Source: Candidatus Brocadiales bacterium
GTDB lineage: Bacteria > Planctomycetota > Brocadiia > Brocadiales > Bathyanammoxibiaceae
DNA length: 64,000 nucleotides
Assembly (NCBI GenBank): GCA_046758865.1
Contig: JBHIBD010000001.1
Span: 7,443-71,442, forward strand
Direction: 5' to 3'
Shown: in pieces, positions 12,816 through 62,454 of the stretch
Layout of the letters: each line of letters begins with the position of its first letter
Position numbering within the stretch: position 1 is the first letter of the stretch
The notes under the pieces: generated by a model
Seen by the model: only the letters and a program-made list of their open reading frames with translations
Databases searched by the model: none
What the model was told of the DNA's origin: nothing
Position numbers and translations under genes: made by a program

Positions 12816-13931
12816 TTAATTAATTGCCCTCTGATATAACACCTCAGTCAATGTCTCCACGGTGTAATGCATCTCTTCATCGGTTATGCCATAATATATG
12901 GGTAAACAGATATGGCGGTTGCATACATCATCAGCTAGAGGAAAATATGCATCAATACTCCCAAGGGCAGGTTGCTTGTGCAAGGGGATATCATAAACTC
13001 CCCCTGAGAGGCTGACACCGTCCCCCTTCATTGCTGTTTTTATTTTTTCCCTCTCGGTTCCTCTTGGAAGTAAGACTATGTATTTATACCAACTACTTTT
13101 CCCTTGGGGCAGCACTAGAGTAAGTCCTGATTTTTCCCTCAAAAGCCCTGAATAAATGTTGGCGGCCCTTTCGCGGGATGAAAGGAAGCTGTCAAGTTTC
13201 TCGAGTTGAACCAAACCTACTGCGGCAGCAAACTCGTTCATCCGCCAATTTGACCCTAAATGGGTGTGATAACTCACCCAGGGCTGGGGTTTGCCATGAT
13301 TGCGAAGCAGCCTGACCTTTTCAGCAAAGTCGTCATTATCGGTAACTACCATTCCTCCTTCACAGCTGGTCATTACCTTGGTGGCAAAGAAGGAGTAACT
13401 TCCGGCTATACCAAAGGTTCCTGCCTTCTTACCAAATATCTCGCTCCCGTGGGCGTGGGCAGCGTCCTCAAATAACCACAGCCCCCTGGCATCACACCAT
13501 GCCTTAATTTCCGCAATTTTGGGGGTTATAATTCCTCCAATATGAACAATGATTACACCCGCAGTATCTTTAGTAACCGCCTTTTCCAACCCTTTCAGGC
13601 TCACTGCAAAGGTATTAGGGTCAGTATCCACGAGTCTGACTTTTCCGCCGGCCAGGAGGACACTGGAGGCGGTGGATAGAAATGTGTTCGTTGGTACAAG
13701 TATCTCCCTATCCTTAACATCAAGTATCCTCATAGAAATCTCAATAGAGCTGGTACCGGAGCTCACTGCCACGGCATGTCTAGAACCTATAAATCTGGCG
13801 AATTCTCTCTCAAATTCCTCAACATTCTTTCCTTGAGCTATCTGGCCAGCGGATAGGCAGTTATCAATTCGCCTGAGGATCTTTTTTCTATCCTCTTCAG
13901 AGAAATATATCTTTACGGGCGGTATCTTCAT
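12816..13931 (-). CDS. DegT/DnrJ/EryC1/StrS-family sugar aminotransferase (PLP lysine present)
   Basis: EDAAHAHGS and SFFATKVMTSCEGGMVVT, with the Schiff-base Lys in ATK. Confidence 0.9.
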   Translation of the reverse strand: MKIPPVKIYFSEEDRKKILRRIDNCLSAGQIAQGKNVEEFEREFARFIGSRHAVAVSSGTSSIEISMRILDVKDREILVPTNTFLSTASSVLLAGGKVRLVDTDPNTFAVSLKGLEKAVTKDTAGVIIVHIGGIITPKIAEIKAWCDARGLWLFEDAAHAHGSEIFGKKAGTFGIAGSYSFFATKVMTSCEGGMVVTDNDDFAEKVRLLRNHGKPQPWVSYHTHLGSNWRMNEFAAAVGLVQLEKLDSFLSSRERAANIYSGLLREKSGLTLVLPQGKSSWYKYIVLLPRGTEREKIKTAMKGDGVSLSGGVYDIPLHKQPALGSIDAYFPLADDVCNRHICLPIYYGITDEEMHYTVETLTEVLYQRAIN

Positions 13932-17458: not shown

Positions 17459-18916
17459 TTATCTATGAATGTAGCTGAGCCTTAGGCCCAGGATTCCCTT
17501 TAACAGCACAGATATAAAGCCAGTGATACCGCCTGCACGTATCCGTCGGAGGACCTCCTTCCTGTAGAAAATAGGATTCAAGTAAAAGGTGGTGCCATAT
17601 CGCATCTTAATTTTAGACATGACAAAACTATTAATTACTTTGTAATAGGCCTCGACCAACTCCTCCTGTGACATGGACTCAGTTCTCATAACAGGTGGAA
17701 AATATCCAATATAGTGAGGGGTGGTATTGTATTTCTCCCAGTTAGTTTCCATTAGCCAGCCTCTTGCCTTCGCAATTTTATAAATTTCCGTGCCTGGGAA
17801 AGGTACTATGATAGAACAGGACACTGAGTCAGCGTCCAGTTCCTTCATAAAATCAATGGTGCGGTTAACTGTCTCCCAGGTCTCACCCAGGTTACCAACC
17901 ATGAAGAATCCATGGGCTATTATGCCGGCCTCTTTTGTTATGGTAACCGCCTTTTTGGCCTGCTCCAGAGAGATGTTCTTCTTGATAAGATTCAATATCT
18001 GAGGGTCACCAGATTCAATTCCGTAGGATATTAGATGGCATCCTGCGTCTTTCATGTATCGCAGTATCTCCGGATCAACAACATTCACACGAGAAGTGCC
18101 ACGCCACGTTATATTCATCCCCGAATCTATAATCATACGACATAAGTCTAAAACATTTTTTCTCTTCAGGGTTAATGTATCATCTACAAAGTTAAAATAG
18201 CGAGCTTCGTAGTTGTCATATAACCATTTGATCTCATTAAATACGTTCTCCGGGCTTCGAACCCTTAATTTTCTCTTAAATATTATATCTGAGGCACAAA
18301 AGTTGCATTGAAACGGACAACCCCTCCCAGTAATGATTGTAAAATAGCGCGTCTCTTTCTCATATCCCGTAGGGAATTCAATATATCTACCTTTGGCGAG
18401 ATCCTTCCAATAAGGCATGGGTAATTTGTCAATATCAGGAATCAATTCCCGAGGTGGATTTATATGTATCTTTCCATCTTTTTTATATCCCAGTCCCTTT
18501 ATATTGTTAAAATCAACTGCACATGATTCTATCGCATCAACCAATTCCACCAGGGTCAATTCACCTTCGCCGATTACTACGAAATCAACATCCTTTTCTG
18601 CTAAAAATTCCATAGGTAGTGCACTTACATGAGCCCCACCCGCAACAGTAATAATTCCGCGACCAAGCGACTTTGAGATCTCACAGCATCTCTTTGCAAG
18701 GTAGTATTGAGGAGTTATAAAGGATATACCCACCATCTCTGGGTCAAAGGCCTCAATTTCTGATTTTAGTTCATCAAGGTGCACATTAATGGCAGCCATA
18801 TCCATTGCGCGCACCTTATGCCCAAGCCCCTCGAGATAAGAGGCGAGATACCCTATACCCAAGGGTGGTTCCGGACTCTCACCTACTGCTGGCGGGTGAA
18901 TGAGCAGAACTCTTAT
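17459..18916 (-). CDS. B12-binding-domain radical SAM enzyme (N-terminus extended beyond the ORF-track start)
   Basis: TGRGCPFQCNFCAS (CX3CX2C) follows an N-terminal Rossmann-like B12-binding region. The reading frame stays open upstream of the track start (IRVLLIHPPAVGESPEPPL-GIGYL) back to an ATA at 18916..18914, which lies 6 nt after AAGGAGG. Confidence 0.8.
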   Translation of the reverse strand: MRVLLIHPPAVGESPEPPLGIGYLASYLEGLGHKVRAMDMAAINVHLDELKSEIEAFDPEMVGISFITPQYYLAKRCCEISKSLGRGIITVAGGAHVSALPMEFLAEKDVDFVVIGEGELTLVELVDAIESCAVDFNNIKGLGYKKDGKIHINPPRELIPDIDKLPMPYWKDLAKGRYIEFPTGYEKETRYFTIITGRGCPFQCNFCASDIIFKRKLRVRSPENVFNEIKWLYDNYEARYFNFVDDTLTLKRKNVLDLCRMIIDSGMNITWRGTSRVNVVDPEILRYMKDAGCHLISYGIESGDPQILNLIKKNISLEQAKKAVTITKEAGIIAHGFFMVGNLGETWETVNRTIDFMKELDADSVSCSIIVPFPGTEIYKIAKARGWLMETNWEKYNTTPHYIGYFPPVMRTESMSQEELVEAYYKVINSFVMSKIKMRYGTTFYLNPIFYRKEVLRRIRAGGITGFISVLLKGILGLRLSYIHR

Positions 18917-18995
18917 TGTTAGCCTCCTTTGTGTTAATGCTTAAGTAATTTTACTTTGGTTTATCTTTACAATGCCAAGAATGAAACGGGGTATT

Positions 18996-19214
18996 TTATA
19001 ATCTGCACCACACATAATACTTGTTACATTGGCTGCAGAGATGAGCAGATTCCTCTTGGCTTTTAAATACATCTCTGGAACCGTTGCACCTAGGGTAGCG
19101 ATTACTAACAAAACAATATGAAAAACACCACGTATTCCATCTTCCCAGCCATTGATTTCCTGCTATCACCGCCCAGTAGCTGTGTGTCTGCATTAAGGGG
19201 TAATAGGCCCTCAA
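18996..19214 (-). CDS. doubtful Cys/Trp-rich 72-aa ORF upstream of the B12 radical SAM gene
   Basis: TTG start with no clear SD. Contains WLG...CFSYC...CSQC..YVW, which loosely echoes the 61-aa zinc-ribbon ORF at 29805..29990. It lies in a region of decayed genes. Confidence 0.2.
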   Translation of the reverse strand: MRAYYPLMQTHSYWAVIAGNQWLGRWNTWCFSYCFVSNRYPRCNGSRDVFKSQEESAHLCSQCNKYYVWCRL

Positions 19215-19364
19215 CCTAAAGATTCTTTGTACTTAATATCATAAATGTAACCCAAATACATAAGAAAATCAAGCAATATCTGTAAAAATAATACATACGC
19301 AGCAACAGTGAAATGTCTATATAAACCAATAATTACGGGGTTGTAGATGCTGAAAGGGGATGCT

Positions 19365-19622
19365 ATATCTCTTTTGTCTTGAGCAGTTCCAGGGCCCTAT
19401 GGTAATCTTCGGGGGGTGTTGAAGTTCAGGAAGGCCTCGTTTTCCAACCTTCTATCCTGCCAATCTCTTCTTTTAATCCATCAAGGGATACGTCACAAGC
19501 CGCCGTATCTATAGCACGCACCGTATGGTCCTGGCTGTCTAAATAAGAGGTGAGATACCCAATGCCTAGAGGGGCGCTTCTGGGATATTGCCTATTGCTG
19601 CCGGGTGGATAAGTAAAATTCT
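19365..19622 (-). pseudogene. decayed N-terminal fragment of a B12-binding radical SAM gene
   Basis: Manual translation RILLIHPAAIGNIPEAPL*ALG / YLTSYLDSQDHTVRAIDTAACDVSLDGLKEEIG parallels RVLLIHPPAVGESPEPPLGIGYLASYLEGLGHKVRAMDMAAINVHLDELKSEIE of 17459..18916. It carries an in-frame TAG (19566..19568) and a frameshift, and the radical-SAM core is absent. Confidence 0.65.
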
Positions 19623-19807
19623 AACAGCGGAGCCCCCAATCTCTTTTTATTGCCTAGGTAAGCCGTTATTTTCATGGAAGAGGACAGAAATTTGTTTTGA
19701 ATACTCGGGAATCTTTCCCAGGGCCTGATTCTGCCAATATATTCTATCGTAGCGAAGCCCATTAAAATCCCTTTTTGCTTTAAGACCCTAATATTCCCTT
19801 ACGTAGT

Positions 19808-25018: not shown

Positions 25019-27364
25019 TTAATATAATTTAAAAATAAAAATTTTCTTTAAATAATCTACTCTAATCTCTGTACTGCCTGAACTCTCTTCAAGGGCTCTA
25101 GCAAGACTACCTTCCACTTTATTATCGAAGGATAAAAGATTGTATTTACTCCCATTACTTTTAAGAGGATCTAAGTACTCAGACAATTTCTCTGGAGTCA
25201 TGTAGTCAACAATGAAATACCTGAAACCATTATTTAGTGCGCTATCTAATTCTTCAAAGTTTTTCACTCCATGGACATTATCTTTTCCAAAATAAAACAT
25301 CCATACAGGAAGATAACTATCGACAGCTACCTTATCGGTCTTACCCTTCAGATAACAGTATGCCTTATCATAACCTGTAGTTGCAACAGCAGCTTGCCGA
25401 GAGTTTGGAAATCCTATAAGTATAACCAGCGCTAATAAAAGGCCGAAATTTATATACTTTAACTTCACCTTACCTTGTAAGAAAGATGCCAGGTCGCTGA
25501 AGGATTTTCCCAACAAAAGGCTAACAAACACAAGGAGTATCGTCCAGACCCGCGGCACAACCATTCCTCCAGAACCGGCTTGTATTGACCACAGGATAAC
25601 GGGAAAGAGAATAGAGACGAGTACAATAAACGTTGCCAGTTGATAGCCCCGTCTTAACAGAATAAGAAAATATATGATGCCACCACAAAAAGCACTCAGC
25701 ATAATAAGGCCTTCAAAGGAAAGGAATATCTTAAACAAGTATAGAAAATCACCCGGAGGACGACCTGCATCTAGAAGCTTATTATTAGTGAATATGCTGT
25801 AAAGGCCTTTTAAGAAATCAACACTATATACAGTGGGCATGCTCACGGCCAGCTCCCTTATTTTGACCTTAATTTCTGTAGAAAAAGGAGAGAAGTTTGC
25901 AATGAGGTTAGAGAAGAGCTCGGTCAGGTAGGTTTTCTGTGGATTTTCGAAGAGTTGGCTATAGACAACTACGGCTTCGACAAAAACTATTGGAATACAA
26001 AGTCCTAAAGAGAAAACTGCGAAACGCCCTGTCACACCCGAGAAACTGCGCTTTAGTGTCCTCATAGAGTATACTTCATAAAACAGGATCAATAAGAGCT
26101 GTATGGCCATAATATAGTGAAAAGTGAACCCAAATCCTGAGGCTACACCCGCTAAGAAGAGCAGGTGCCAGCTCTTTACATTATTCAGACTCAGATAATA
26201 AAAGTAGATACTGAGCGTAAGAAAGAACATCATTTCAACATAGCCAGTGCCTGCCTTAGAGTAAAAGATGTGTAAGAATGAGGAACCAAGGATGGCCGAG
26301 GAATAAAGCGCCGTCTGAATGTCAAACAGTCTCCTCGCCAGTACAAACATCATGAGTACTGTTAAGACCCCAAACACACAATCAATATATGAAGCCAAGG
26401 AACTTTTTATCCCAAATAGCTTGTAACCCAAGAAGATAATAAAAGTGTATCCCGTCTTGGCCCCCGTGTGAAAAAACTGCCCGTCTGTTTGCAGGTCCCT
26501 TGCAGCACATGAATATGTAGCACTGTCATTGATAAGAAAGGTCTGTTCACTGACCCCATAAGCTCTAAAGAAGAGGCTGGTCGACAAGATAAATAGCAAT
26601 ATTATATGCTCTAAAGAGACACCTGAGGAAATAGGCATTAAGTTATAGTTTCTCCGACCTGTGCGTCCCTCTGAATGGATACAGAAATTCCTGCCGACCC
26701 GTAGTTCCCTCAATAAATACTTTAGAAAAAGTAGTCCAGCTGGGATAGATTTGGCTGTACTCTCCCCGCCGATTCTGTCGCCTTCTATTGTAGGGGTCTC
26801 CGCCACTTTCAACCCTAGCTTCATCGCTCTAATAGACACCTGGTACTCGATAACAAAGCCCGGAGCATCTGGGGCCATTCTCTGGAAAGCTGCTTTAGTA
26901 ATGGCCCGGTAACCGTTTATCGTATCAGTTATTTGGCCTCCCCATATGGAATTTGCAATGAAGGTGAAGGCCCTATTGGCCCAAGCCCGCCAGGGTAATA
27001 GAGCCTCATCTTCCTCATTCCTAGCATTAGCGAGAAAACGGGAGGCGATGGCCATATCAAAGCCCTCTTTCAAAAGCCCAGCAAGTCTGGGAATGTCTTT
27101 GGGGTCTTCGTTTCCATCAGGACTGAAAAACACCAAATGTTCACCCCTGGCCTCTCTCATAGCTATTCGAAAGGCCTCCCCCCTGCCCTTAACATCCTGA
27201 ATTATTACCTTCATACCTTTGCTACGAAAGAATTCCACCGTCCCGTCTACGGAGCCCCCATCAATTACGATGGTCTGGTCCACACTATCAAATGGAATTT
27301 GGTCGAACAGGGCCGTAATGCCCTCAATCTCATTAAGGGTTAAGATAACGAGTGTAGTGCTCAT
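25019..27364 (-). CDS. fusion protein: N-terminal GT2 (polyprenol-phosphate sugar synthase-like) plus C-terminal polytopic GT-C/PMT_2-like domain
   Basis: N-terminus LVILTLNEIEGI, VIDGGSVDGT, FFSPDGNEDP (GT2). From about residue 250 there are more than 10 hydrophobic helices and a soluble tail, as in ArnT/PMT-type transferases. Confidence 0.75.
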   Translation of the reverse strand: MSTTLVILTLNEIEGITALFDQIPFDSVDQTIVIDGGSVDGTVEFFRSKGMKVIIQDVKGRGEAFRIAMREARGEHLVFFSPDGNEDPKDIPRLAGLLKEGFDMAIASRFLANARNEEDEALLPWRAWANRAFTFIANSIWGGQITDTINGYRAITKAAFQRMAPDAPGFVIEYQVSIRAMKLGLKVAETPTIEGDRIGGESTAKSIPAGLLFLKYLLRELRVGRNFCIHSEGRTGRRNYNLMPISSGVSLEHIILLFILSTSLFFRAYGVSEQTFLINDSATYSCAARDLQTDGQFFHTGAKTGYTFIIFLGYKLFGIKSSLASYIDCVFGVLTVLMMFVLARRLFDIQTALYSSAILGSSFLHIFYSKAGTGYVEMMFFLTLSIYFYYLSLNNVKSWHLLFLAGVASGFGFTFHYIMAIQLLLILFYEVYSMRTLKRSFSGVTGRFAVFSLGLCIPIVFVEAVVVYSQLFENPQKTYLTELFSNLIANFSPFSTEIKVKIRELAVSMPTVYSVDFLKGLYSIFTNNKLLDAGRPPGDFLYLFKIFLSFEGLIMLSAFCGGIIYFLILLRRGYQLATFIVLVSILFPVILWSIQAGSGGMVVPRVWTILLVFVSLLLGKSFSDLASFLQGKVKLKYINFGLLLALVILIGFPNSRQAAVATTGYDKAYCYLKGKTDKVAVDSYLPVWMFYFGKDNVHGVKNFEELDSALNNGFRYFIVDYMTPEKLSEYLDPLKSNGSKYNLLSFDNKVEGSLARALEESSGSTEIRVDYLKKIFIFKLY

Positions 27365-28347
27365 AAGGTCTTCTGAGTTAGCGCTTCAGTCCTGTACCAT
27401 TCAATCTGTTTCCTAAGACCGTCCTTCAATCTCACCTGGGCCTCAAACCCTATTTTCTCTTTCGCCTTGCTGGTGTCGCAATTTCTTCTCGGTTGGCCTG
27501 AAGGCTTGGTGGTATCAAAATGTACAGTGGGGTTCTCCCCCGATAGACTAATTATCATCTCAACCAGGTCTTTCATTTTTATCTCTTCATCAGTCCCTAA
27601 GTTAAGTGCGTCTGCGCAGGGATACTTTTCGGTAGCCTCCACCATGCCTCTAGCCAAATCAGTTACATATAGAAACGCCCTAGTCTGCTCTCCATCACCC
27701 CATACCGTCAAAGGGTTCTCCCCGTCGTATATCCGCTTAATTAACGCAGGAATCACATGAGACCTTTCAGGTTCAAAGTGGTCTTTGGGACCGTAGGTAT
27801 TGTAGGGCCTGACTATAGCAATCTTCATCCCGAACTCCTTGGCATAGGCCTCTGCCTGGACTTCTCCCATCCTCTTTGCCCACCCGTACCCCATATTAGT
27901 ATCTTCTGGAACCCCCACAAACCCTTCTGTCTCTGGTGTTGGGACCTTACAGAATCTCTGATATACACAGGCACTGCTTACCATGAGGAACCTCTCTACA
28001 TTGTTAACCCTTGCCATCTCCAACACATTCGTGTTTATCAAGATATTGTCTCGAAACATGGTACCCGGATGTTTCATGTTATAGGTAATGCCTCCCACCT
28101 TGGCCGCAAGGTGCATTACGACCTTCGTCTCTCTAGACACCCTCTCACATTCATTCACGTTTCTCAGATCAGCGTTAACGAACTCAATCCTATCGCTAAC
28201 CTTATGAAGGTTTCTAAGAGTACCATTTTCAAGGTTATCGGTTACCCTAACGCGTGCGCCCTTCTCAATTAGAAGCTCTACTACGTGAGAACCTATGAAT
28301 CCAGCCCCACCAGTGACCAATACAATTTTGTCAGTCCAAAAAGACAC
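27361..28347 (-). CDS. NAD(P)-dependent epimerase/reductase (GDP-fucose-synthase/ColC-like SDR), start moved to a GTG
   Basis: KIVLVTGGAGFIGSHVV and YGWAKRMGE (YxxxK). The track ORF begins inside the upstream gene, whereas the GTG at 28347..28345 lies 1 nt after that gene's stop. Confidence 0.8.
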   Translation of the reverse strand: MSFWTDKIVLVTGGAGFIGSHVVELLIEKGARVRVTDNLENGTLRNLHKVSDRIEFVNADLRNVNECERVSRETKVVMHLAAKVGGITYNMKHPGTMFRDNILINTNVLEMARVNNVERFLMVSSACVYQRFCKVPTPETEGFVGVPEDTNMGYGWAKRMGEVQAEAYAKEFGMKIAIVRPYNTYGPKDHFEPERSHVIPALIKRIYDGENPLTVWGDGEQTRAFLYVTDLARGMVEATEKYPCADALNLGTDEEIKMKDLVEMIISLSGENPTVHFDTTKPSGQPRRNCDTSKAKEKIGFEAQVRLKDGLRKQIEWYRTEALTQKTL

Positions 28348-28348
28348 C

Positions 28349-29800
28349 CTATCTATCCAGTATCTTCTTATGCAAAGAGCCAAGCATGAAAAGTGACGTC
28401 TTTGCAATCCACAAGAATTCTGTAAGCGATTGCACAGAGAACAAAAGTTCAAGCATCTTGGAGGATCGGTAGTAAAAGTCTTGATAGGCCTTTTGGTAGT
28501 ATTTCGCTACATCTTCCTTGCTCAGGCTTCCCAACTCGTAGAACGCTTCACCGCTATAGAACCCCATATCTAGACCGGATGTAGTGTCAACCAAGAATCT
28601 GCCCTCTCTTTGGACCATTTCGAACAATCTAGTACCTGGAAATGGTACCGTAATCGTGAAATTTGCGATGGTGGGATTCATCTTTATGGCAAAATCTATC
28701 GTCTTTTGCATGGTCTGGGCATTATCCCCAGGAAGACCAAACATGAAAAACCCGTATACGATCATACCGCTGTCCTTCGCCAACCTGGTTGCTTCCAATA
28801 CCTTACTGAGGCTAATGCCTTTTCTACAATTCTTTAAAACCCTCTCATCGCCGGATTCGACACCAAACGCTATCTTAAAGACACCTGCCTTTTTCATTTT
28901 CTTGATAATATTCTCATCAAGAGAATCCACGCGAACGCCTAGCTGGAGATTTATGGCTAGATTGTAGTTCCGCTCGATTATCCCATCCAATATCTCCACT
29001 GTCCTTTTACGGATAAGGGAAAAATTATCGTCCAGGATATCTATCTGCTTTACATTTAATTCCTTTACTAGATAATCGATCTCGCTTAGTACGTTTTGGG
29101 GTGACCTTGCGGTAAAGTTTGATAAGAACACATCCTTACTGCAGTACACACACTGGCTGGGACAACCCCTGCTGGTAAGGATTGGGGCAACAGGCGTCTT
29201 CCTGGCCCTGCTCTTGTACAAGTTGAGGTCGGGAAGCATGTACCAGGCCGGAATGGGAAGGGAGTCTAGGTCCTTTATTCTTTTCCGCTGTTCAGTCCTT
29301 ATGATAGTTCCGTTCTCGGCATATGCTACCCCATTGATACCGCTGAAGTTATTGCACTGCCCACGCCTCAAGTTGTGCATTATCTCCAGCATGGTAAGCT
29401 CCCCCTCGCCAATTACAACAACATCTGCCTTTCCCTCCTGCAGGAATTTCTGCGGAAAGGAGGTTGGGAAGGGGCCGCCAACGATAATCTTGGGTGCCTC
29501 ATGACAGGCAGACTTGAGTTTTTCTGCAATTTCGATACATGCATTGCCAGTAAATAAATTTGCGGTAATCCCAACGGCCTTTGGCTTCGACCTCAGAATG
29601 TCCTCTACGACCATGTTAGCGTCTTTTTTCAGGACATTCGCATCAATGACACCACACCGAAACCCTTCATTCTCTAATACAGCGGCTATATAAGCTAGGC
29701 CTATGGGTGGCAATAAGGTTGTTTCACTAACCCCTTTTATATTTCCAGGGAATGGTGCGACCAAGATTATGTCCGGTTCATCCTGCAACATATAATTCAT
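28349..29800 (-). CDS. B12-binding-domain radical SAM enzyme (start moved to the internal ATG)
   Basis: TSRGCPSQCVYCSKD (CX3CX2C) after a B12-binding-like N-domain (IILVAPFPG...IGLAYIAAVLE). The ATG at 29800..29798 lies 5 nt after the zinc-ribbon ORF stop, with GGAAGTGAG upstream. Confidence 0.85.
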   Translation of the reverse strand: MNYMLQDEPDIILVAPFPGNIKGVSETTLLPPIGLAYIAAVLENEGFRCGVIDANVLKKDANMVVEDILRSKPKAVGITANLFTGNACIEIAEKLKSACHEAPKIIVGGPFPTSFPQKFLQEGKADVVVIGEGELTMLEIMHNLRRGQCNNFSGINGVAYAENGTIIRTEQRKRIKDLDSLPIPAWYMLPDLNLYKSRARKTPVAPILTSRGCPSQCVYCSKDVFLSNFTARSPQNVLSEIDYLVKELNVKQIDILDDNFSLIRKRTVEILDGIIERNYNLAINLQLGVRVDSLDENIIKKMKKAGVFKIAFGVESGDERVLKNCRKGISLSKVLEATRLAKDSGMIVYGFFMFGLPGDNAQTMQKTIDFAIKMNPTIANFTITVPFPGTRLFEMVQREGRFLVDTTSGLDMGFYSGEAFYELGSLSKEDVAKYYQKAYQDFYYRSSKMLELLFSVQSLTEFLWIAKTSLFMLGSLHKKILDR

Positions 29801-29804
29801 AAGC

Positions 29805-29990
29805 TCACTTCCAGAATTCCCAGACGTAACGCTCCTTCTTTTTGCCAAAGTCACAGTCTGAATTTGAGCACTTATACATCTCCCAACCGCTTGCGCTGGA
29901 AATAATAAGCTTACTTCCGCACTTGGGACACCTTTTAATCAGTCCCAGCCACCAGGCTAATTTTTTTACGTATGGCAGACTTTCTTTCAT
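29805..29990 (-). CDS. 61-aa zinc-ribbon mini-protein
   Basis: CPKCGS...YKCSNSDC gives two Cys pairs. ATGA start/stop overlap with the upstream dehydrase gene. The ORF ends 5 nt before the radical SAM start. Confidence 0.55.
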   Translation of the reverse strand: MKESLPYVKKLAWWLGLIKRCPKCGSKLIISSASGWEMYKCSNSDCDFGKKKERYVWEFWK

Positions 29991-31219
29991 TGTCTTTTTA
30001 CCGCTAATGGCTCATCCTTGAGAATATCACCGAAGACCTGAGCAATATAATTTAGGTCGTCTTTTTCAAGGTATTGATGGCATCCGATATAGAAGCCATT
30101 TCTTCCCACACGTTCGGCGTTGGGCAGTCTGCCCTTATATATCTCACACAATTGTGCATAGGCGCGTTGTTGGGTGGGTATACATCCAAATAGCGGCCTT
30201 GTTTCTACCCCCCGGTCCTCTAACGCCGCCCGTAAGGCCTTTCTTGTAATGACCCCGGCGTCTCTGATAACAATAGGATATGCCAAGTAACTCACTTGGT
30301 CTGAGTAGAGGGGTAGTTGTAGGAAGGAGGAATATTCTTCTAAGAGACCGTTGAGATATTTGACGTTTTCTTTGCGCCTGGCAAGTATCCACTCCACCTT
30401 TTCCACTTGAGTTACAGCAAGGGCTGCCTGGAATTCCATCGTCTTAAAATTGTATCCAATAAAGTCGTGGGCAAATTTTGGGTCAAAGTCATCCTCATCG
30501 GAGGGTCTGAGCAGGGGGCAATACCCTTTACTTCTGGTACAAACATGGCAGTCGCAGGCCCTTCCCTGGGCCTTTATCTGTCTTACCAGTCTAGCTATCT
30601 CTTCATCATTAGTGACCACGGCCCCCATCTCACCAGCCTGAATATTGTGGGCTATATAAAAAGAAAAGGTCGAAAGCAGTGACATAGTGCCCGTTTTCTT
30701 GCCTCCATAAAGGCTTCCGTGGGCCTGGGCGGAATCTTCAAAGGTCAAGAGGTTATACTCGGCCGATATGTCATTTATCTCGTCCATCCTGGCCGGGAAC
30801 CCCATTAAATGTACTGGCATAATAAGGGCGTAATCCTCTGGGCAGTTCGTATGTCCCAGGTGTTCTCTAATATTCTCGGGGGTTATGCAGAAGGTAACAG
30901 GATCAATGTCCACATACACCGGCTCAAAGCCCGTCACACTTATAGCACTACTGGTAGCTATATAGGTTATTGGTGTGGTAATTACCTTGGCACCGGGTTT
31001 CAGGCCTTTAGCGTATTTGAGCGCAGTCAACCCTGCTATGAGTGCACCCGCGCCAGAACTCGTAGCAACACAGTACTTTGTCCCTACATACTCAGCCCAC
31101 GCCTGTTCGAACCTGTGGACGTATTTCCCCTCAGATATACGACCGGAGTCGAGGACATCCATTACAGCCGAGCGTTCCACCTCTCCCAATCTGAAGTCTC
31201 CGACTGTAACCCGTCGCAT
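29987..31219 (-). CDS. PMP-dependent sugar 3-dehydrase (E1/RfbH- or ColD-like member of the DegT family; Lys replaced by His)
   Basis: EDSAQAHGS, and FSFYIAHNIQAGEMGAVVT aligns with SFFATKVMTSCEGGMVVT of the DegT paralog, placing His where the PLP Lys sits. An additional Cys cluster follows: RACDCHVCTRSKGYC. Confidence 0.7.
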   Translation of the reverse strand: MRRVTVGDFRLGEVERSAVMDVLDSGRISEGKYVHRFEQAWAEYVGTKYCVATSSGAGALIAGLTALKYAKGLKPGAKVITTPITYIATSSAISVTGFEPVYVDIDPVTFCITPENIREHLGHTNCPEDYALIMPVHLMGFPARMDEINDISAEYNLLTFEDSAQAHGSLYGGKKTGTMSLLSTFSFYIAHNIQAGEMGAVVTNDEEIARLVRQIKAQGRACDCHVCTRSKGYCPLLRPSDEDDFDPKFAHDFIGYNFKTMEFQAALAVTQVEKVEWILARRKENVKYLNGLLEEYSSFLQLPLYSDQVSYLAYPIVIRDAGVITRKALRAALEDRGVETRPLFGCIPTQQRAYAQLCEIYKGRLPNAERVGRNGFYIGCHQYLEKDDLNYIAQVFGDILKDEPLAVKRQ

Positions 31220-31373
31220 TTCCTACCCTCTCGAACTATTTATCTAACGAACCGGCGAGCTGAGAATTGGTCTGCCCCTGCAAAGGTAAGATACACACAA
31301 TCCCAATCATTCCTGACCCCAAGTACTGAGTAAAGTAATTGTCATGTGTATCCCGAAAACCCAATAGCTTCAT

Positions 31374-32384
31374 TTAATGATATTCGGCTTCTGGCCAACC
31401 CAGGGCTACTTTGGTTCTTCCTGCCATATCGGAGAGAAGTTTGATATCTTCTTCCACCATTATCTCTATCATTTCCCGGAAGGATGTCTTGGGTCTCCAC
31501 CCAAGTCGTTTATGGGTCTTTGTTGCGTCTCCTACCAGGCAGTCCACCTCGCAAGGCCTGATAAGACGTTGGTCAATATTCACATACTTGCGCCAATCGA
31601 GACCCACACAATTAAATGCTGCCTCTACTAACTCCTTTACGCTATGGGCCTCACCAGTAGCTATTACATAGTCTTCGGCCACTTCCTGCTGGAGCATAAG
31701 CCACATAGCCTCAACATAGTCTTTGGCGTACCCCCAGTCCCTCTTGGCGTCCAAATTGCCCAACATAAGCTCTTCTGAGAGACCTAACTTGATGCTTGCC
31801 ACGCCGTGGGTCACTTTTCTGCTCACAAATTCTAGTCCCCGCCTCGGTGATTCGTGGTTAAAACATATCCCACAAGAGGCGAAAATGTCATAGCTTTCCC
31901 TATAGTTAACGGTGATGTGGTGGCCATAGACCTTTGCCACACCGTAGGGGCTCCTCGGGTAAAATGGGGTGTTTTCGTTCTGGGAAGATTCCCTGACCTT
32001 ACCGAACATCTCACTGCTGGAGGCCTGATAGAATCTCGTGTCTAGCTTGTACTTCCGGATGGCCTCGAGTATGCGGACAACCCCCAGGGCTGTAACCTCA
32101 CCTGTGAATACTGGCTGTACCCAGGAGGTGGGAACAAATGACTGGGCAGCAAGGTTGTAAACCTCATCCGGTTGGATACTCTTAATAATCTCGTCCATAG
32201 AAGACTGATCCAACAAGTCGCCGTTAACTATATTCACCCTATCGAGTATATGCTCAATACGGTGGAAGTGATTCAGGCTCGCCCTTCTAGCCATCCCCGA
32301 TACCTTATAACCTTTGGCCAAGAGAAACTCTGCCAGATATGAACCATCCTGTCCTGTAATGCCTGTAATCAACGCCACTTTCAC
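31374..32384 (-). CDS. gmd: GDP-mannose 4,6-dehydratase
   Basis: [35 protein letters not shown] and NHESPRRG are hallmark Gmd sequences. Confidence 0.9.
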
Positions 32385-45761: not shown

Positions 45762-47297
45762 ATGAAGGCATACAGAAAAGATGGGAAGATAAGAAGTCTC
45801 GATGAGTTAGAGAAAATAGTGCAAAGACTGAAAAAAAAGAATAAGACCGTAGTCCATTGTCATGGTGTTTTTGATCTTATGCATCCTGGTCACATTAAAC
45901 ACCTAGAGGCGGCGAAAAGAGAAGGTGATGTCCTGATTGTAACATTGACACAAGATAAATATGTTGGCAAAGGTCCGGGGAGGCCCGTATTTAACCAGCA
46001 TCTCAGGGCAGAATCTATAGTTGCACTCGAATGCGCTGATTATGTGGCAATAAATGAGTGGCAGACGGCGGTAGAAACTATCAAAAAGATAAAACCCGAT
46101 ATATATGCAAAGGGAAGTGATTACGCAGCCCCAGAGACAGACATAACGGGTGAGATATACCACGAAAAAGAAGCTATAGAGTCTATAGGTGGAAAGATTC
46201 ATTTCACAAATGAGACTACCTTTAGCTCATCACAGCTTTTAAATAAATTCTTTGATGTATATCCTGATGAGTCAAGAAAGTTTCTTCAAGATTTCCGTTC
46301 AAGATTTTCTTCATTCGATGTTATTGATAAATTGAAAGCCGTAAGGGATTTAAAGATACTTGTAATAGGAGATACTATTATTGATGAATACCACTACTGT
46401 GTACCAATGGGTAAGTCTCCTAAGGAGAGCATAATCTCAACAAAATACATCAGTGAAGAAAGATTTGCCGGAGGCGTGTTGGCATGTGCTAATCACATAG
46501 CAGGATTTTGCGATAATGTGCATTTAGTAACTTGTTTAGGAACTATGGATTCGAAAGAGGGCTATATCTTAGACCACTTAAAATCTCACATAGACTCTAA
46601 GTTCTTCTATCGCGATGATGCGTGTACTATTGTAAAGAGGAGATTTGTTGAATCTGCATTTCTAACCAAGATGTTTGAAATATCTTCCTTGGAAGACCGT
46701 CCGCTCCCTCAAGCCGTAAATCTTGCAGTTTGTGACTACCTGCACGCTGTAGCTGCGAATTATGACCTTGTTATTGTAGCCGATTTTGGGCACGGTTTTA
46801 TTGACCGGAATATTGTAAACGTTTTATGTGAGAAGGCGAGGTTTCTTGCCGTTAATACTCAGACTAACAGCGCAAACATCGGTTTTAACCTGGTAACTAA
46901 ATATCCGAGGGCAGATTTTGTGTGTATTGATGAGCCAGAAATAAGGCATGCCGCACATAGTAAGCATGGAGAAATTAAAGATATAATCCAAGAGATTGCA
47001 AAGAAACTAAAGAGCAAAAAGGTAGCTGTAACAAGGGGACACTTAGGATCGATTACTTACGATGAGACGGGCAGTTTTTATGAGATACCCGTTTTCTCAG
47101 GAAAAGTTGTTGACAGAGTAGGTGCAGGTGATGCCTTTCTTTCCCTAACATCACCGATAGTCACTTTGGGTTGCTCGATGGAACTGGCTGGTTTTGTAGG
47201 AAATGCTGTGGGGGCAATAGCGGTCGGTATTGTATGCAACAGGTCATCCGTTGAGCCTATTAGTCTATATAAATTTATTACCACCCTTCTTAAATGA
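45762..47297 (+). CDS. bifunctional nucleotidyltransferase (CTP_transf_like, N-terminal) / PfkB sugar kinase (C-terminal); HldE-like with reversed domain order
   Basis: N-terminus HCHGVFDLMHPGHIKHLEAAKREGDVLIV (HxGH). C-terminus DRVGAGDAFLS (PfkB signature 2). 511 aa. Confidence 0.8.
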   Translation: MKAYRKDGKIRSLDELEKIVQRLKKKNKTVVHCHGVFDLMHPGHIKHLEAAKREGDVLIVTLTQDKYVGKGPGRPVFNQHLRAESIVALECADYVAINEWQTAVETIKKIKPDIYAKGSDYAAPETDITGEIYHEKEAIESIGGKIHFTNETTFSSSQLLNKFFDVYPDESRKFLQDFRSRFSSFDVIDKLKAVRDLKILVIGDTIIDEYHYCVPMGKSPKESIISTKYISEERFAGGVLACANHIAGFCDNVHLVTCLGTMDSKEGYILDHLKSHIDSKFFYRDDACTIVKRRFVESAFLTKMFEISSLEDRPLPQAVNLAVCDYLHAVAANYDLVIVADFGHGFIDRNIVNVLCEKARFLAVNTQTNSANIGFNLVTKYPRADFVCIDEPEIRHAAHSKHGEIKDIIQEIAKKLKSKKVAVTRGHLGSITYDETGSFYEIPVFSGKVVDRVGAGDAFLSLTSPIVTLGCSMELAGFVGNAVGAIAVGIVCNRSSVEPISLYKFITTLLK

Positions 47298-47309
47298 AAC
47301 AGAAGCGTT

Positions 47310-47891
47310 ATGCAATTAGACCTTAAAAATTATCTTGACCAGCTTGAAAATACTTTATTAGAAATTCAGGTAACAAATTCTGATAATGCTAATATAGATT
47401 TGATTAATGGCATCGAGGAAGTTACAAAAATAATATCTGCTCAATCGGAGAAAGGCAACAAAGTTATAATGATTGGAAATGGCGGTAGCTCATCAATCGC
47501 AAGCCACATAACAGTCGATTTATGGAAAAACGGAGGAGTGAGGGCGATTACTTTTGGTGACCCAGCATTACTTACCTGTGTGAGTAATGACTTGGGTTAT
47601 GAGTGTGTCTTTGAAAAACCTATAAGGATGTTTGGTGATGCAGGGGATGTTCTTATTGCCATAAGCAGTTCTGGAAGATCAGAGAATATTCTAAATGGGG
47701 TTAGTGCAGCGGAGAAAAGATTGTGTAAAGTTATTACGATGTCTGGATTTGAACCAGATAATCCACTTCGCTCAGCTGGAGAGATAAACTTTTATGTCCC
47801 GTCCAATTCCTATGGATATGTGGAGATAGCCCATTTAGTTCTTTGTCATTATGTTGTGGATATAATAATAAACAAGAATTCACATGGATAG
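47310..47891 (+). CDS. gmhA: SIS-domain sedoheptulose-7-phosphate isomerase (GmhA-like)
   Basis: MIGNGGSSSIASHITVDL and LIAISSSGRSENIL. 193 aa. Confidence 0.8.
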   Translation: MQLDLKNYLDQLENTLLEIQVTNSDNANIDLINGIEEVTKIISAQSEKGNKVIMIGNGGSSSIASHITVDLWKNGGVRAITFGDPALLTCVSNDLGYECVFEKPIRMFGDAGDVLIAISSSGRSENILNGVSAAEKRLCKVITMSGFEPDNPLRSAGEINFYVPSNSYGYVEIAHLVLCHYVVDIIINKNSHG

Positions 47892-48951: not shown

Positions 48952-48973
48952 GAATTGGGGCCGTAAATAAATA

Positions 48974-49417
48974 TTGGAAGCAAAGTACAGGGTAGCACTC
49001 ATTATTTTGTACGATCCCGGAAGAAGATTATTGCTTCAACACAGAACCAAAGATGCCAAAATACTACCCGATTATTGGGCGTTCTTTGGTGGTAGTGTTA
49101 GACAAGGAGAGACGCCACATGAAGCTGTTCGCAGAGAGGCACTTGAAGAGTTGAATTACAAACTCAAGGCACCTCAACTTTTTATTGAACAGGATTTCAA
49201 AATTGGCAGCACGGAAGGTTACATGTACGTATATATCGAAGCTTTTGATAGTGATAAGTCGTTGCTTAACTTACAGGAAGGACAAGGGTGGGGTTGGTAT
49301 AAAGCATCCGAGGTTGATGGCCTGAGAATGATCGACCATGATAGAAAGCTGGTAAAGTCAATAACACGCTATTTGGAAAATAGTACAAATACAAATTCTG
49401 AAAGGGCCGAGAGTTAA
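48974..49417 (+). CDS. NUDIX hydrolase
   Basis: Nudix box GGSVRQGETPHEAVRREALEELN. Confidence 0.85.
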   Translation: MEAKYRVALIILYDPGRRLLLQHRTKDAKILPDYWAFFGGSVRQGETPHEAVRREALEELNYKLKAPQLFIEQDFKIGSTEGYMYVYIEAFDSDKSLLNLQEGQGWGWYKASEVDGLRMIDHDRKLVKSITRYLENSTNTNSERAES

Positions 49418-49434
49418 AGATAAAGATGTAAAAG

Positions 49435-61356: not shown

Positions 61357-62454
61357 ATGTATAGGGTTATGGAAAAGTCAATGTATGCAGTTATTCTCGC
61401 CGGTGGGTCAGGTACAAGACTGTGGCCGCTAAGCCGTCGAAACAAACCCAAGCACCAGATTAAGATGTCTTGCGGCCGATCACTACTTCAGCAGGCCTAT
61501 GACAGAATATATCCCACTATTGACCCAAGCAACATCCTTGTAGTGACTACCTTGGAACAGGAAAGCGATATAAGGGCACAACTGCCCACTCTTCCCGCCG
61601 AGAACCTCCTGGTGGAGCCACTTGGCAGAAATACTGCAGCCTGTGTAGGGCTCGCTGCTGTTGCCATCAATAAGAGGTCTGAAGACTCGGTTGTGGCGGT
61701 ACTCACTGCAGACCACCTCATAAAGCCAAAAGAGAGATTTATCGAAATCCTAAGGTTTGGTGCACTTATGGCTTCAAGTTGTGAATGCCCTATAATCTTT
61801 GGCATAAAACCATCTTTTCCGTCAACCAATTATGGTTATGTTAAAAGGGGTGAAATGTTGCTAAGGGAGAAAGGCTTCAGGGTCTTCCAGTGTGAAGCTT
61901 TTACGGAAAAACCGGACCAAGAACTAGCAAAGAAACTACTGGACACGAAGGAATATTACTGGAACAGTGGCATGTTTGTGTGGAGGGTGGATTCGGTCCT
62001 TGACACGTTGAATAAATTAATGCCGCCACTTGCAAAGGCATTGCAGAGGATCGAGAGCAGCTTGGGTACTCCTACCGAAGGCCCAACCTTACGTGAGGAA
62101 TATGAAAAGCTCGATAGTGTCTCTATAGACTGTGGTGTTATGGAGAAGGTGAAAAATATTAGGGTGATTGAAGCGAATTTCGAATGGGCGGATGTAGGGG
62201 ACTGGAGCATTTTCGGAGAATTCTATGGCAAAAAACACGGTACAAATATTGTCATTGGCAAGCATTATGGCATTGATACATCAAATTGTGCTAGTATTGG
62301 CAACTCAGATGGTCTCTTAGTGACAGTTGGTGTCAAAGACCTTATAGTAATTCACACCCACGATGTTACCCTGGTCTGCCATAGAGATAGGGCAGGAGAG
62401 GCTAAAAGGCTCGTAGAAGAGTTGAAGGGAAAAGGATTTGAAGCGTACATCTAA
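61357..62454 (+). CDS. manC: mannose-1-phosphate guanylyltransferase (NTP_transferase only, no PMI/cupin domain)
   Basis: AVILAGGSGTRLWPLSRRNKPK and GYVKRGE...YWNSGMFVW. The start may be an internal Met (MEKSMY or MYAV). Confidence 0.8.
   Translation: MYRVMEKSMYAVILAGGSGTRLWPLSRRNKPKHQIKMSCGRSLLQQAYDRIYPTIDPSNILVVTTLEQESDIRAQLPTLPAENLLVEPLGRNTAACVGLAAVAINKRSEDSVVAVLTADHLIKPKERFIEILRFGALMASSCECPIIFGIKPSFPSTNYGYVKRGEMLLREKGFRVFQCEAFTEKPDQELAKKLLDTKEYYWNSGMFVWRVDSVLDTLNKLMPPLAKALQRIESSLGTPTEGPTLREEYEKLDSVSIDCGVMEKVKNIRVIEANFEWADVGDWSIFGEFYGKKHGTNIVIGKHYGIDTSNCASIGNSDGLLVTVGVKDLIVIHTHDVTLVCHRDRAGEAKRLVEELKGKGFEAYI

Follow-up and report, generated by a model that had tools for sequence, protein, structure and literature searches.

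The described sugar 3-dehydrases closest to the locus reported here are E1, ColD and SpnQ. E1 (RfbH/AscC/DdhC) is the CDP-6-deoxy-L-threo-D-glycero-4-hexulose 3-dehydrase of Yersinia and Salmonella. ColD is the GDP-4-keto-6-deoxy-D-mannose 3-dehydratase that goes with ColC, the GDP-L-colitose synthase, and SpnQ is the TDP-4-keto-2,6-dideoxyglucose 3-dehydrase of an actinomycete natural-product pathway. E1 and SpnQ have a four-Cys [2Fe-2S] cluster and ColD has none (PMC8987622). Carrier-lipid glycosylation is represented by ArnC/ArnT, GtrB/GtrC, CsbB/YfhO and the archaeal/eukaryotic DPM synthase + PMT pairs. In each pair, the product of a small GT2 is a polyprenyl-phosphate sugar, which a polytopic GT-C enzyme then uses on the outside of the membrane. 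Two further systems provide precedents for radical SAM chemistry on sugars. In hopanoid cyclitol-ether formation, the B12-domain radical SAM enzyme HpnJ acts on a lipid-linked sugar right after the GT2 HpnI, and in apramycin 3'-deoxygenation the radical SAM enzyme AprD4 is paired with the SDR reductase AprD3.

We analysed a 64,000-nucleotide stretch of DNA (the window) from Candidatus Brocadiales, the anammox order. Six tightly packed genes run on the minus strand from 32384 down to 25019, and a seventh gene of interest lies further away. Related loci are given L numbers.

31374..32384, minus strand: GDP-mannose 4,6-dehydratase (Gmd); TIGR01472 437 bits (cutoff 415), PF16363 439 bits
29987..31219, minus strand: third-lineage PMP-dependent sugar 3-dehydrase; PF01041 302 bits, His191, four-Cys loop
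29805..29990, minus strand: 61-aa four-Cys zinc-ribbon-like protein; counterparts in L006, L009 and P0242, weak Pfam matches
28349..29800, minus strand: class B (B12-binding domain) radical SAM enzyme; PF02310 72 bits, PF04055 87 bits
27361..28347, minus strand: GDP-fucose-synthase (GFS)/ColC-type SDR, predicted epimerase/4-reductase; 7ll6 162 bits, active-site residues
25019..27364, minus strand: GT2-PMT_2 (GT-C) fusion, 781 aa; PF00535 54 bits, PF13231 40.6 bits, both above cutoff
61357..62454, plus strand: mannose-1-phosphate guanylyltransferase (ManC-like); PF00483 119.5 bits with PF22640 ManC beta-helix

The most likely reading is that this operon makes a GDP-3,6-dideoxy sugar with an Fe-S-type dehydrase, subjects it to a radical SAM step, loads it onto a lipid carrier and attaches it outside the cell. 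Taken as a whole, this explanation, with all six genes in one operon and two modules joined through a common SDR, has in our judgement a little better than an even chance of being right. The first five genes and their order on the minus strand were as described in a first-pass annotation. The unit extends beyond 27361 to a sixth gene, the GT2-PMT_2 fusion, which that annotation lacked. Junctions were −4 nt (ribbon start overlapping the dehydrase stop), +4 nt (radical SAM ATG past the ribbon stop), +1 nt, and −4 nt (GT2-PMT_2 start overlapping the SDR stop). The most likely starts are ATG 29800 rather than GTG 29854 for the radical SAM gene, and GTG 28347 rather than TTG 28452 for the SDR. The radical SAM gene is translationally coupled to its neighbours and is placed exactly between the dehydrase side and the SDR.

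We observed that the dehydrase contains the sequences FSFYIAHNIQ and CDCHVCTRSKGYC. A DegT paralog at 12816-13931 reads SYSFFATK and has the Lys. HMMER alignment against solved structures placed His191 opposite E1 His220 and ColD His188, which bears out the earlier claim that His replaces the catalytic Lys. Entry 3bb8, the H220K mutant of E1, has K at the same column. His191 was invariant together with Cys222, Cys224, Cys227 and Cys234 (120/120 homologs), far beyond chance. These cysteines form a loop, C222-x-C224-x2-C227-x6-C234, that aligned to E1 C251, C253, C257 and C261 and is missing in ColD, in agreement with the proposed E1-like Cys cluster. The position of Cys193, which we take to be one of the four E1 ligands (Agnihotri et al. 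2004), is Ala in the dehydrase. The cluster motif is therefore not that of E1. The loop had low confidence in the AF2 model, with the remainder high. Presumably the loop holds an Fe-S cluster, and it could instead bind zinc or have a structural role.

The best solved relatives of the dehydrase were E1 (3bcx, 181 bits) and ColD (2gms, 158 bits), and RfbH was its best NCBIfam model (226.6, below the cutoff of 423). With 32% identity to E1 and 28% to ColD, the protein is nearly as far from one as from the other, and we therefore assign it to a third dehydrase lineage. As reported earlier, we did not find an E3-type reductase: Pfam scans of 58 ORFs in the window gave no Fer2, FAD_binding_6 or NAD_binding_1 domain. 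The missing E3 poses no problem, because SpnQ works with general ferredoxin or flavodoxin reductases; SpnQ without a reductase transaminates (PMC8987622). That behaviour is compatible with an aminotransferase or a ColD-type hydrolytic dehydrase here, in either case with the four-Cys loop as a zinc site of structural role. In a fold search, GDP-perosamine synthase and other aminotransferases ranked as high as E1 and ColD, and the absence of Cys193 points the same way. However, the catalytic Lys is replaced by the invariant His, the loop matches the cluster-binding cysteines of E1 and is missing in ColD, and the same cluster has the Lys-type paralog for amination. We consider both of these assignments highly improbable, and retain a PMP-dependent 3-dehydrase.

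Members of the dehydrase family occurred most often within a contiguous gmd-dehydrase-SDR set, which supports a colitose-like GDP pathway here. In many loci the gene just before the dehydrase was a Gmd homolog (51-69% identity). Among related loci with enough upstream DNA, Gmd lay within 1.5 kb upstream of the dehydrase in 18/52, and a GFS-like SDR directly followed the dehydrase in 28/58 related loci. The ManC noted at 61.4 kb was upheld by its PF00483 and PF22640 matches, and we propose it as the distal GDP-mannose supply for the cluster on the strength of its sequence. With Gmd adjoining and this synteny, the GDP-linked substrate suggested earlier is the most economical reading for a family that is not exclusively GDP-linked.

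The dehydrase family was also found in CDP-glucose contexts (L001, L104, L108 and L144) and with another 4,6-dehydratase type, and GDP specificity is therefore suggested by local context only. In Scalindua, the neighbours of a glucose-1-phosphate cytidylyltransferase that scores above cutoff include homologs of the dehydrase (67% identical) and of the SDR (69% identical). This arrangement favours a CDP- or dTDP-linked 4-keto-6-deoxyglucose as the substrate of dehydrase and SDR, with Gmd serving a different sugar of the polysaccharide cluster around it. The pairing of the same SDR type with RmlA/RmlB in L006, and RfbH as the top NCBIfam model, lean in that direction. We regard this substrate as improbable. 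The 58 Pfam-scanned ORFs of the window held no cytidylyl- or thymidylyltransferase except an HldE-like cytidylyltransferase-fold domain in heptose genes, ManC is present, and Gmd directly precedes the dehydrase here as it does in many related loci.

The SDR matched GDP-L-fucose synthase (7ll6) best and GDP-mannose 3,5-epimerase (GME) almost as well (160 bits). The GFS/ColC-type Ser-x-Cys, YxxxK and His were all present, as expected from its earlier description as GDP-fucose-synthase/ColC-like, and the His aligned with GME Lys217 and with the GFS 'SHV' motif. Its score against the GDP-fucose-synthase model NF047922 was 206, below the cutoff of 500. Homologs of the SDR (59-69%) followed a dehydrase (L001, L093 and others) or preceded a radical SAM gene (L006, L009, L011).

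A relative of the ribbon or the radical SAM enzyme was found in only one of 82 other dehydrase loci (L011). The earlier description of the gene set as interrupted is therefore accurate, and the two genes are a true insertion. The ribbon ORF is a real gene, with counterparts of the same Cys pattern (CPKC...C-x4-C) in L006, L009 and P0242 (52-61% identical); its Pfam zinc-ribbon matches were weak and sub-threshold. When 1.8 billion proteins were searched exhaustively with HMMER, P0242 (61%) was the single close relative. In L006 and L009, the ribbon homologs (52-56%) immediately precede the genes of the closest radical SAM homologs. We propose the 61-aa protein as a putative accessory partner of the radical SAM enzyme.

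The GT2 domain of the sixth gene covers residues 1 to about 235 of the fusion, and the part beyond residue 240 has at least 8 hydrophobic segments. The fusion matched AglJ (97 bits), and its only solved relative was dolichol-phosphate mannose synthase 5mlz. From this weak AglJ/DPMS similarity, we propose that the GT2 domain is polyprenyl-phosphate sugar synthase-like. We also observed a second, paralogous set, GT2 ... B12 radical SAM-PMT_2, elsewhere in the window.

The identity of the B12 radical SAM enzyme was confirmed by PF02310, PF04055 and a CxxxCxxC motif (CPSQCVYC). A DPM-synthase-like GT2 lay within 400 nt of 18/40 copies of its family, compared to 10/81 dehydrase loci (Fisher p = 1.5e-4). 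The dehydrase is not a conserved partner of the family; this GT2 and a large GT-C-type membrane protein are. The order SDR-ribbon-radical SAM-GT2(-PMT_2) or radical SAM-GT2-PMT_2 recurred in L006, L009, L011, L171 and L172, where separate GT2 genes (60-69% identical), some then followed by PMT_2, come after the radical SAM gene. L006 has radical SAM, ribbon, SDR and GT2 genes behind RmlA/RmlB and lacks a 3-dehydrase; its sole DegT is a Lys-type aminotransferase. L171 and L172 have radical SAM, GT2 and PMT_2 without any DegT gene. The 3-deoxy intermediate therefore cannot be the defining substrate of the radical SAM family. At L007, L010, L012 and L170, close homologs (52-56% identical) stand without adjacent sugar genes, and the family may lack one single function.

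The enzyme probably tailors the sugar. On class priors alone, methylation is its most likely chemistry: annotated cobalamin radical SAM enzymes are mostly methylases, and the sugar C-methylases GenK, GenD1 and MoeK5 exist (PMC9204698). The first-pass annotation had suggested that the enzyme C-methylates the 4-keto-3,6-dideoxy intermediate to give a branched dideoxy sugar, which would put the methylation after the dehydrase and before the reductase. The coupled position of the gene between dehydrase and SDR fits this GDP-linked scheme, and L011 likewise unites radical SAM gene, SDR and dehydrase. The suggestion found no direct support, and against it stand the GT2/GT-C partnership, the sets of L006, L171 and L172, and the absence of the radical SAM gene from 81/82 other dehydrase loci. 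In addition, the closest curated families, BchE (189 bits, cutoff 481) and HpnJ (188 bits, cutoff 578), are non-methylases. We consider this specific methylation rather unlikely.

These top NCBIfam matches favour instead a radical dehydration, epimerisation or ring rearrangement, possibly on a lipid-linked sugar after the GT2. For HpnJ, the proposed reaction is a ring contraction on lipid-linked glucosamine, the product of HpnI (PMC9204698, PMC13459092). AprD4, a sugar 1,2-diol dehydratase, was the best solved relative by sequence and fold, and the GT2 is a persistent neighbour of the family, as is the SDR in the closest loci. However, every similarity was far below family cutoffs and AprD4 does not use cobalamin. 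The best folds for the AF2 model (pLDDT 91) were AprD4, MgmA, TsrM, OxsB, CysS and TokK, a set that is not discriminating, and the methylases MgmA, TsrM, CysS and TokK matched equally well. A non-methylase role of this kind is possible, at odds as long as those of the specific methylation.

In the preferred reading, the first module (gmd, dehydrase, SDR) would follow a colitose-type route. Gmd would form GDP-4-keto-6-deoxy-D-mannose, and the His-type PMP enzyme would remove the C3 hydroxyl, probably in the manner of E1 or SpnQ and probably without the glutamate-recycling route of ColD. The four invariant loop cysteines would carry an Fe-S cluster reduced by general cellular ferredoxin/flavodoxin systems. 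The SDR would then epimerise and reduce C4, yielding a GDP-3,6-dideoxyhexose. The second module (ribbon, B12 radical SAM, SDR, GT2, PMT_2), a type that also exists without a 3-dehydrase, would be a carrier-lipid glycosylation unit. The radical SAM enzyme may tailor a 6-deoxy or dideoxy sugar at the nucleotide-linked or lipid-linked stage. Polyprenyl phosphate would receive the sugar from the GT2 domain; the GT-C part of the fusion would then pass the sugar on to an acceptor beyond the cytoplasmic membrane.

The sugar pathway belongs to a known type, unlike the radical SAM step. With E1, its top-scoring solved relative, the dehydrase shares the DegT fold, the His for Lys and a Cys-rich loop at the same place with four aligned cysteines. 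However, the two are only 31.6% identical, the RfbH equivalog cutoff is not reached, Cys193 is lacking, and the adjacent genes are those for Gmd and a GFS-like SDR in place of CDP-glucose genes, with no E3 partner. The ColD/ColC system has the same succession of Gmd, His-type PMP dehydrase and GFS-like epimerase/reductase; the His lines up with ColD His188, and the SDR has the GFS-type residues. In contrast, ColD is 28.4% identical, has a deletion at the site of the four-Cys loop and no Fe-S cluster, and here the ribbon and B12 radical SAM genes separate dehydrase from SDR. SpnQ, likened by description, is Fe-S-type and has no dedicated E3, as proposed here, but is dTDP-linked. HpnJ and AprD4 differ in scores far below thresholds (188 vs 578 and 86 vs 500, respectively). 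The carrier-lipid pairs are similar at the superfamily level only; a B12 radical SAM enzyme is absent from all of them, as is a 3,6-dideoxyhexose donor. Their two functions, adjacent separate genes in L009, L171 and L172, are fused here in one protein.

The five genes that the first-pass annotation had described as a GDP-3,6-dideoxyhexose (colitose-like) set were all found where it had placed them, all on the minus strand, and a sixth gene follows them:

31374..32384, minus strand, gmd
29987..31219, minus strand, dehydrase of the DegT fold
29805..29990, minus strand, zinc ribbon of 61 aa
28349..29800, minus strand, B12 radical SAM enzyme
27361..28347, minus strand, SDR resembling GDP-fucose synthase (GFS) and ColC
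25019..27364, minus strand, GT2-PMT_2 fusion of 781 aa

We observed gene junctions of -4 nt (dehydrase/ribbon), +4 nt (ribbon/radical SAM, ATG start at 29800), +1 nt (radical SAM/SDR, GTG start at 28347) and -4 nt (SDR/fusion), so the translationally coupled unit reaches 25019. The earlier extent of 27361-32384 held for its five genes but not for its end at 27361, which left the fusion out. Promoter and terminator counts were no higher than the shuffled expectation and therefore gave no operon boundaries; an Rfam scan of the window returned two tRNAs only and no cobalamin riboswitch. At the sequence level the observation is correct, well beyond chance. The operon is best seen as two modules sharing one SDR: the first is a pathway of known type whose dehydrase represents a new lineage, the second an uncharacterised radical SAM/GT2/GT-C module, GT-C being the PMT_2-type membrane glycosyltransferase.

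The dehydrase (410 aa) matched PF01041 at 301.8 bits (Pfam), which places it in the DegT/DnrJ/EryC1 fold-type I group. Its best solved relatives were E1, the RfbH-type CDP-linked 3-dehydrase (3bcx, 181 bits), and ColD, the GDP-linked 3-dehydrase (2gms, 158 bits). Alignments with HMMER and MAFFT put the His of FSFYIAHNIQ (His191) on the columns of E1 His220 and ColD His188, and the H220K mutant entry 3bb8 has Lys in this column. Conservation was counted in the best 120 of >2,300 homologs at E ≤ 1e-20; these 120, at 60-69% identity, derive from a wide range of environments, with Scalindua and Dehalococcoidia among them. His191 was invariant (120/120), and the paralog at 12816-13931 keeps its Lys, as SYSFFATK. 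Both results bear out the Lys-to-His replacement proposed in the first-pass annotation. As a putative member of the PMP-dependent 3-dehydrases, the enzyme would deoxygenate C3 of an NDP-4-keto-6-deoxyhexose.

Cys222, Cys224, Cys227 and Cys234 were also invariant across the best 120 homologs, and they aligned with E1 C251, C253, C257 and C261 (MAFFT). We take the E1 [2Fe-2S] motif to be C193-x57-C251-x-C253-x7-C261, with the ligands so assigned. The Cys cluster had been called E1-like; this stood for the four loop positions but not for the E1 C193 column, which is Ala in 115 of the 120 homologs. The four local Cys could bind a cluster despite the missing C193 equivalent. ColD, which has no Fe-S loop, shows a gap across the whole Cys-loop region where the dehydrase homologs have an invariant four-Cys insertion, and this difference sets the dehydrase outside the ColD subtype at the sequence level. 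The dehydrase also fell outside the E1/RfbH subtype (226.6 bits on the RfbH equivalog NF011936 of NCBIfam, under the cutoff of 423). It was 31.6% identical to E1 and 28.4% to ColD, with E1 and ColD 30.5% identical to each other. The dehydrase is a third lineage and belongs with neither E1 nor ColD.

The AF2 model of the dehydrase (pLDDT 84) matched ColD, E1 and GDP-perosamine synthase at E ~1e-30 with TM 0.77-0.79; in this search E1, ColD and ordinary aminotransferases came out about level, without discrimination between them. Low confidence was confined to two places, the Cys loop and the stretch surrounding His191. For the Cys loop this would fit, without proving, a cofactor-dependent loop.

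As the first-pass annotation had noted, no E3-type reductase, the dedicated partner of E1, was visible: we found no Fer2, FAD_binding_6 or NAD_binding_1 protein among the 58 window ORFs scanned, and none of these ORFs was an RfbF/RfbG gene for CDP-glucose. E1 and the dTDP-linked 3-dehydrase SpnQ carry a four-Cys [2Fe-2S] cluster and ColD is without one (PMC8987622). Because SpnQ draws on general ferredoxin or flavodoxin reductases in place of E3 (PMC8987622), an E1/SpnQ-like mechanism is compatible with the lack of E3 among the scanned ORFs.

We then asked which nucleotide carries the sugar. Gmd scored 437.1 bits on TIGR01472 (NCBIfam), over the equivalog cutoff of 415, in agreement with the annotated identity of gmd. 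The comparison set comprised 82 other non-redundant loci encoding dehydrase relatives ≥50% identical. Of the 52 loci that extend far enough upstream, 18 had Gmd (≥45% identical) ≤1.5 kb ahead of the dehydrase; of the 58 that extend far enough downstream, 28 had a GFS-like SDR directly after it. These SDRs were of type A (≥55% identical to the SDR of the window; 11 loci) or type B (38-55%; 17 loci); the type B SDR of locus L116, the sole one scanned with NCBIfam, outscored type A on the GDP-fucose-synthase model. Among the clustered neighbour ORFs, Gmd-like proteins (37 loci) and the window-type SDR (30 loci) ranked as the top two, and none of the clusters was E3-like. Given this survey with its gmd-dehydrase-SDR synteny, the adjacent Gmd and the ManC at 61.4 kb, the GDP-linked substrate favoured in the first-pass annotation is the best reading here.

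GDP linkage is a reading at the level of the window, not a property of the entire dehydrase family. Another 4,6-dehydratase type was present in 16 of the dehydrase loci. At locus L001 (Candidatus Scalindua, DRGJ01000082.1, 7001-14683), the dehydrase (67%) and SDR (69%) stand beside a glucose-1-phosphate cytidylyltransferase scoring over its cutoff, together with a CDP-glucose-dehydratase-like SDR, an MBL-fold protein, another SDR, a 586-aa ThDP enzyme and a DegT gene. This looks like a yersiniose-type pathway for a branched 3,6-dideoxyhexose. A yersiniose residue (C8H14O4, 174.09 Da by our arithmetic) would equal in mass the 174-Da sugar of the Kuenenia S-layer O-glycan (PMC5088730).

The SDR of the window scored alike to GDP-L-fucose synthase (162 bits) and GDP-mannose 3,5-epimerase (GME; 160 bits), and its 206.1 bits on the GDP-L-fucose synthase equivalog NF047922 (NCBIfam) were under the cutoff of 500. 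Its Ser-x-Cys (SSACVY), YxxxK (YGWAK) and the His of RSHVIPAL aligned to the motifs of GFS 7ll6, whose E. coli counterparts are S107/C109/Y136/K140/H179. The column of this His, where GFS has His and GME has Lys217, is marked by the K217A mutant entry. Because all three motifs were found, we assign the SDR as a GFS/ColC-type epimerase-reductase, as first annotated, though below the GFS cutoff. Overall, conserved residues and synteny support the reading of the dehydrase as a putative colitose-like, GDP-linked, Fe-S-type enzyme.

The radical SAM enzyme matched PF02310 (72.2 bits) and PF04055 (87.5 bits), both over cutoff (Pfam), as in class B, and its N-terminal B12-binding domain predicts cobalamin binding. 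The CxxxCxxC motif reads CPSQCVYC, with C213, C217 and C220 invariant in our alignment A1. All 43 matches to NCBIfam subfamilies (BchE, HpnJ, PhpK, HpnR, GenK-like and others) were below cutoff, and the best were the non-methylases BchE (188.6/481) and HpnJ (187.5/578). The best solved relative was the sugar diol-dehydratase AprD4. In the fold search AprD4, MgmA, TsrM, OxsB, CysS and TokK matched the model about equally, without discrimination; the methylases MgmA, TsrM, CysS and TokK thus fit it about as well as AprD4. Methylases make up most of the annotated class B enzymes, HpnJ, BchE and OxsB being exceptions, and function prediction from sequence is unreliable in this class (PMC9204698). 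Methylation stands only slightly above other radical chemistry for this enzyme. The proposed C-methylation to a branched dideoxy sugar becomes one possibility among several, and the comparative context does not favour it.

That context came from the loci of the closest radical SAM homologs (53-57% identical), taken one by one:

L006: RmlA and RmlB (both over cutoff), type A SDR (62%), ribbon (56%), radical SAM, GT2 (67% to the N-terminal domain of the fusion); the sole DegT gene is Lys-type, without a Cys loop
L009: type A SDR (68%), ribbon (52%), radical SAM, GT2 (69%), PMT_2; YfhO further downstream
L011 (Omnitrophota): SDR, radical SAM, GT2, 9-TM protein, then a dehydrase with the His and Cys loop
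L171 and L172: radical SAM, GT2, PMT_2 of ~960 aa, with overlapping stops and starts
L041 (Nanohalarchaeota): radical SAM, GT2 (55%), Gmd (53%)

Among 40 radical SAM copies ≥38% identical, a GT2 resembling dolichol-phosphate mannose (DPM) synthase lay ≤400 nt away in 18 and ≤3 kb away in 27, and a membrane protein of ≥350 aa with ≥7 TM segments lay ≤4 kb away in 27. GT2 proximity (≤400 nt) was higher for the radical SAM copies (18/40) than for the dehydrase loci (10/81; P = 1.5e-4, Fisher), a rough control because the dehydrase contigs are shorter. We conclude that the radical SAM enzyme probably belongs functionally with a carrier-lipid glycosylation module and tailors its sugar. Homologs 52-56% identical in L007, L008, L010, L012 (Woesebacteria) and L170 had no adjacent sugar genes. 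Three of these (L007, L008 and L010, 55-56% identical, from Smithella and other delta-proteobacterial MAGs) stand beside fatty-acid genes (ketoacyl synthases, a thioesterase) and PlsY; the family may include lipid-directed members.

A GT2 of ~238 aa also adjoins the dehydrase itself in about one-eighth of loci (10/81 by tblastn, 11 by ORF clustering), as at 9216-9932 in locus L119, where it directly follows the dehydrase and is DPM-synthase-like by tblastn. Carrier-lipid loading of dideoxy sugars may therefore be a wider theme, independent of the radical SAM gene.

The gene set had been described as interrupted, an accurate description: we observed a ribbon or radical SAM relative in none of the other 82 dehydrase loci except L011. 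Four Cys of the ribbon are invariant (CPKC ... C-x4-C), and a W-W-x-G-x-I segment is conserved. A word-index search returned the ribbon itself alone, and an exhaustive HMMER search gave one close relative plus generic zinc-ribbon repeats, so the family is rare. Two of its three relatives have a known context, and in both cases the next gene downstream is one of the closest radical SAM homologs. No ribbon gene lies upstream of the second or third B12 radical SAM gene in the window. In this radical SAM clade the ribbon is an accessory that occurs rarely; that it acts as a partner or redox helper is speculation. We also considered the ribbon and radical SAM enzyme as the missing E3-like electron donor, and rejected this because the pair occurs without the dehydrase in L006 and the dehydrase family normally lacks the pair.

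The GT2 domain of the fusion matched PF00535 (54 bits). Its only solved relative was DPM synthase (5mlz, 37.7 bits, a weak similarity), and its best NCBIfam model was AglJ (97 against a cutoff of 325); it is a candidate polyprenyl-phosphate glycosyltransferase of the DPM1/AglJ/GtrB/ArnC type. The PMT_2 part is of the GT-C type, with 40.6 bits on PF13231 against a gathering score of 26.1 and ≥8 hydrophobic segments. A second, paralogous set without a ribbon gene occupies 53023-58244 on the plus strand:

53023-53895, plus strand, DPM-synthase-like GT2, 28% identical to the GT2 domain of the fusion
53924-54986, plus strand, two unannotated membrane-like ORFs
55299-56813, plus strand, B12 radical SAM enzyme, 30% identical to that of the operon
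56847-58244, plus strand, PMT_2 GT-C gene

Both sets belong to a single, very large surface-glycan locus (~4.4 to 35.5 kb, minus strand, and 37 to 58 kb, plus strand). It encodes a Bac_transf initiating transferase, Wzx-like flippases, Wzy_C, Wza/Wzc-like export genes, many GT4 and GT2 genes, methyltransferases and a carbamoyltransferase. Its six radical SAM genes, three with B12-binding and two with SPASM domains, are an unusual density of radical chemistry for one 64-kb polysaccharide cluster:

5199-6404, minus strand, radical SAM gene
17459-18862, minus strand, B12 radical SAM gene
28349-29800, minus strand, B12 radical SAM gene of the operon
47884-48951, plus strand, radical SAM gene
52022-53107, plus strand, radical SAM gene
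55299-56813, plus strand, B12 radical SAM gene of the paralogous set

The ORF at 17459-18862 has a TTG start, lacks ~30-50 residues before the PIG(L/I) motif relative to the other two B12 enzymes, and is preceded by an AT-rich, ORF-free gap of ~950 nt (18863-19807); truncation of the gene or a frameshift could account for this. Heptose-like nucleotide-sugar genes lie at 45762-53107 (plus strand), among them an HldE-like PfkB plus cytidylyltransferase, a SIS/GmhA-like protein, a NUDIX protein, an RmlD-like reductase and a split transketolase (49435-51173), and two radical SAM-SPASM genes are interspersed between them. Beyond the left end of the cluster lie tRNA-Glu and tRNA-Lys (3802-3978, minus strand) and a short phage-integrase-family ORF of 196 aa (498-1088, minus strand). 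An integrated island may adjoin or include the cluster.

Anammox surface glycans are unusually modified, and the operon bears on these glycans. In Kuenenia, as many as five methyl groups are present on the S-layer O-glycan, along with an unidentified 174-Da sugar (PMC5088730). We found no paper on a B12 radical SAM enzyme in polysaccharide or carrier-lipid glycosylation. Our tentative proposal, which we hold to be possible though somewhat unlikely, is that the ribbon, B12 radical SAM enzyme, DPM-synthase-like GT2 and GT-C form an undescribed glycosylation module. The radical SAM enzyme would remodel a 6-deoxy or 3,6-dideoxy sugar (by C-methylation or an HpnJ/AprD4-type rearrangement), possibly on a polyprenyl-phosphate carrier, and the donor would be supplied by what would be the first 3-dehydrase that is both GDP-linked and Fe-S-dependent (E1 mechanism). 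If true, anammox-order bacteria and many uncultured anaerobes would carry a surface sugar that is new. New enzymology is also possible, B12 radical SAM genes being frequent in glycan clusters of uncultured anaerobes, with three in the window; the recurrent radical SAM, GT2 and GT-C set is a concrete, testable entry point.

The textbook pairs CDP, an Fe-S cluster and E3 against GDP, no cluster and glutamate, the mechanism of ColD being hydrolytic with PMP regenerated via glutamate. This dichotomy of E1 and ColD may be incomplete: a large lineage joins the E1 Cys loop to a Gmd/GFS-like context, without E3. For the radical SAM and GT2 pair, the nearest known analogy is HpnI/HpnJ, in which HpnJ works on a lipid-linked sugar once the GT2 HpnI has acted (PMC13459092).
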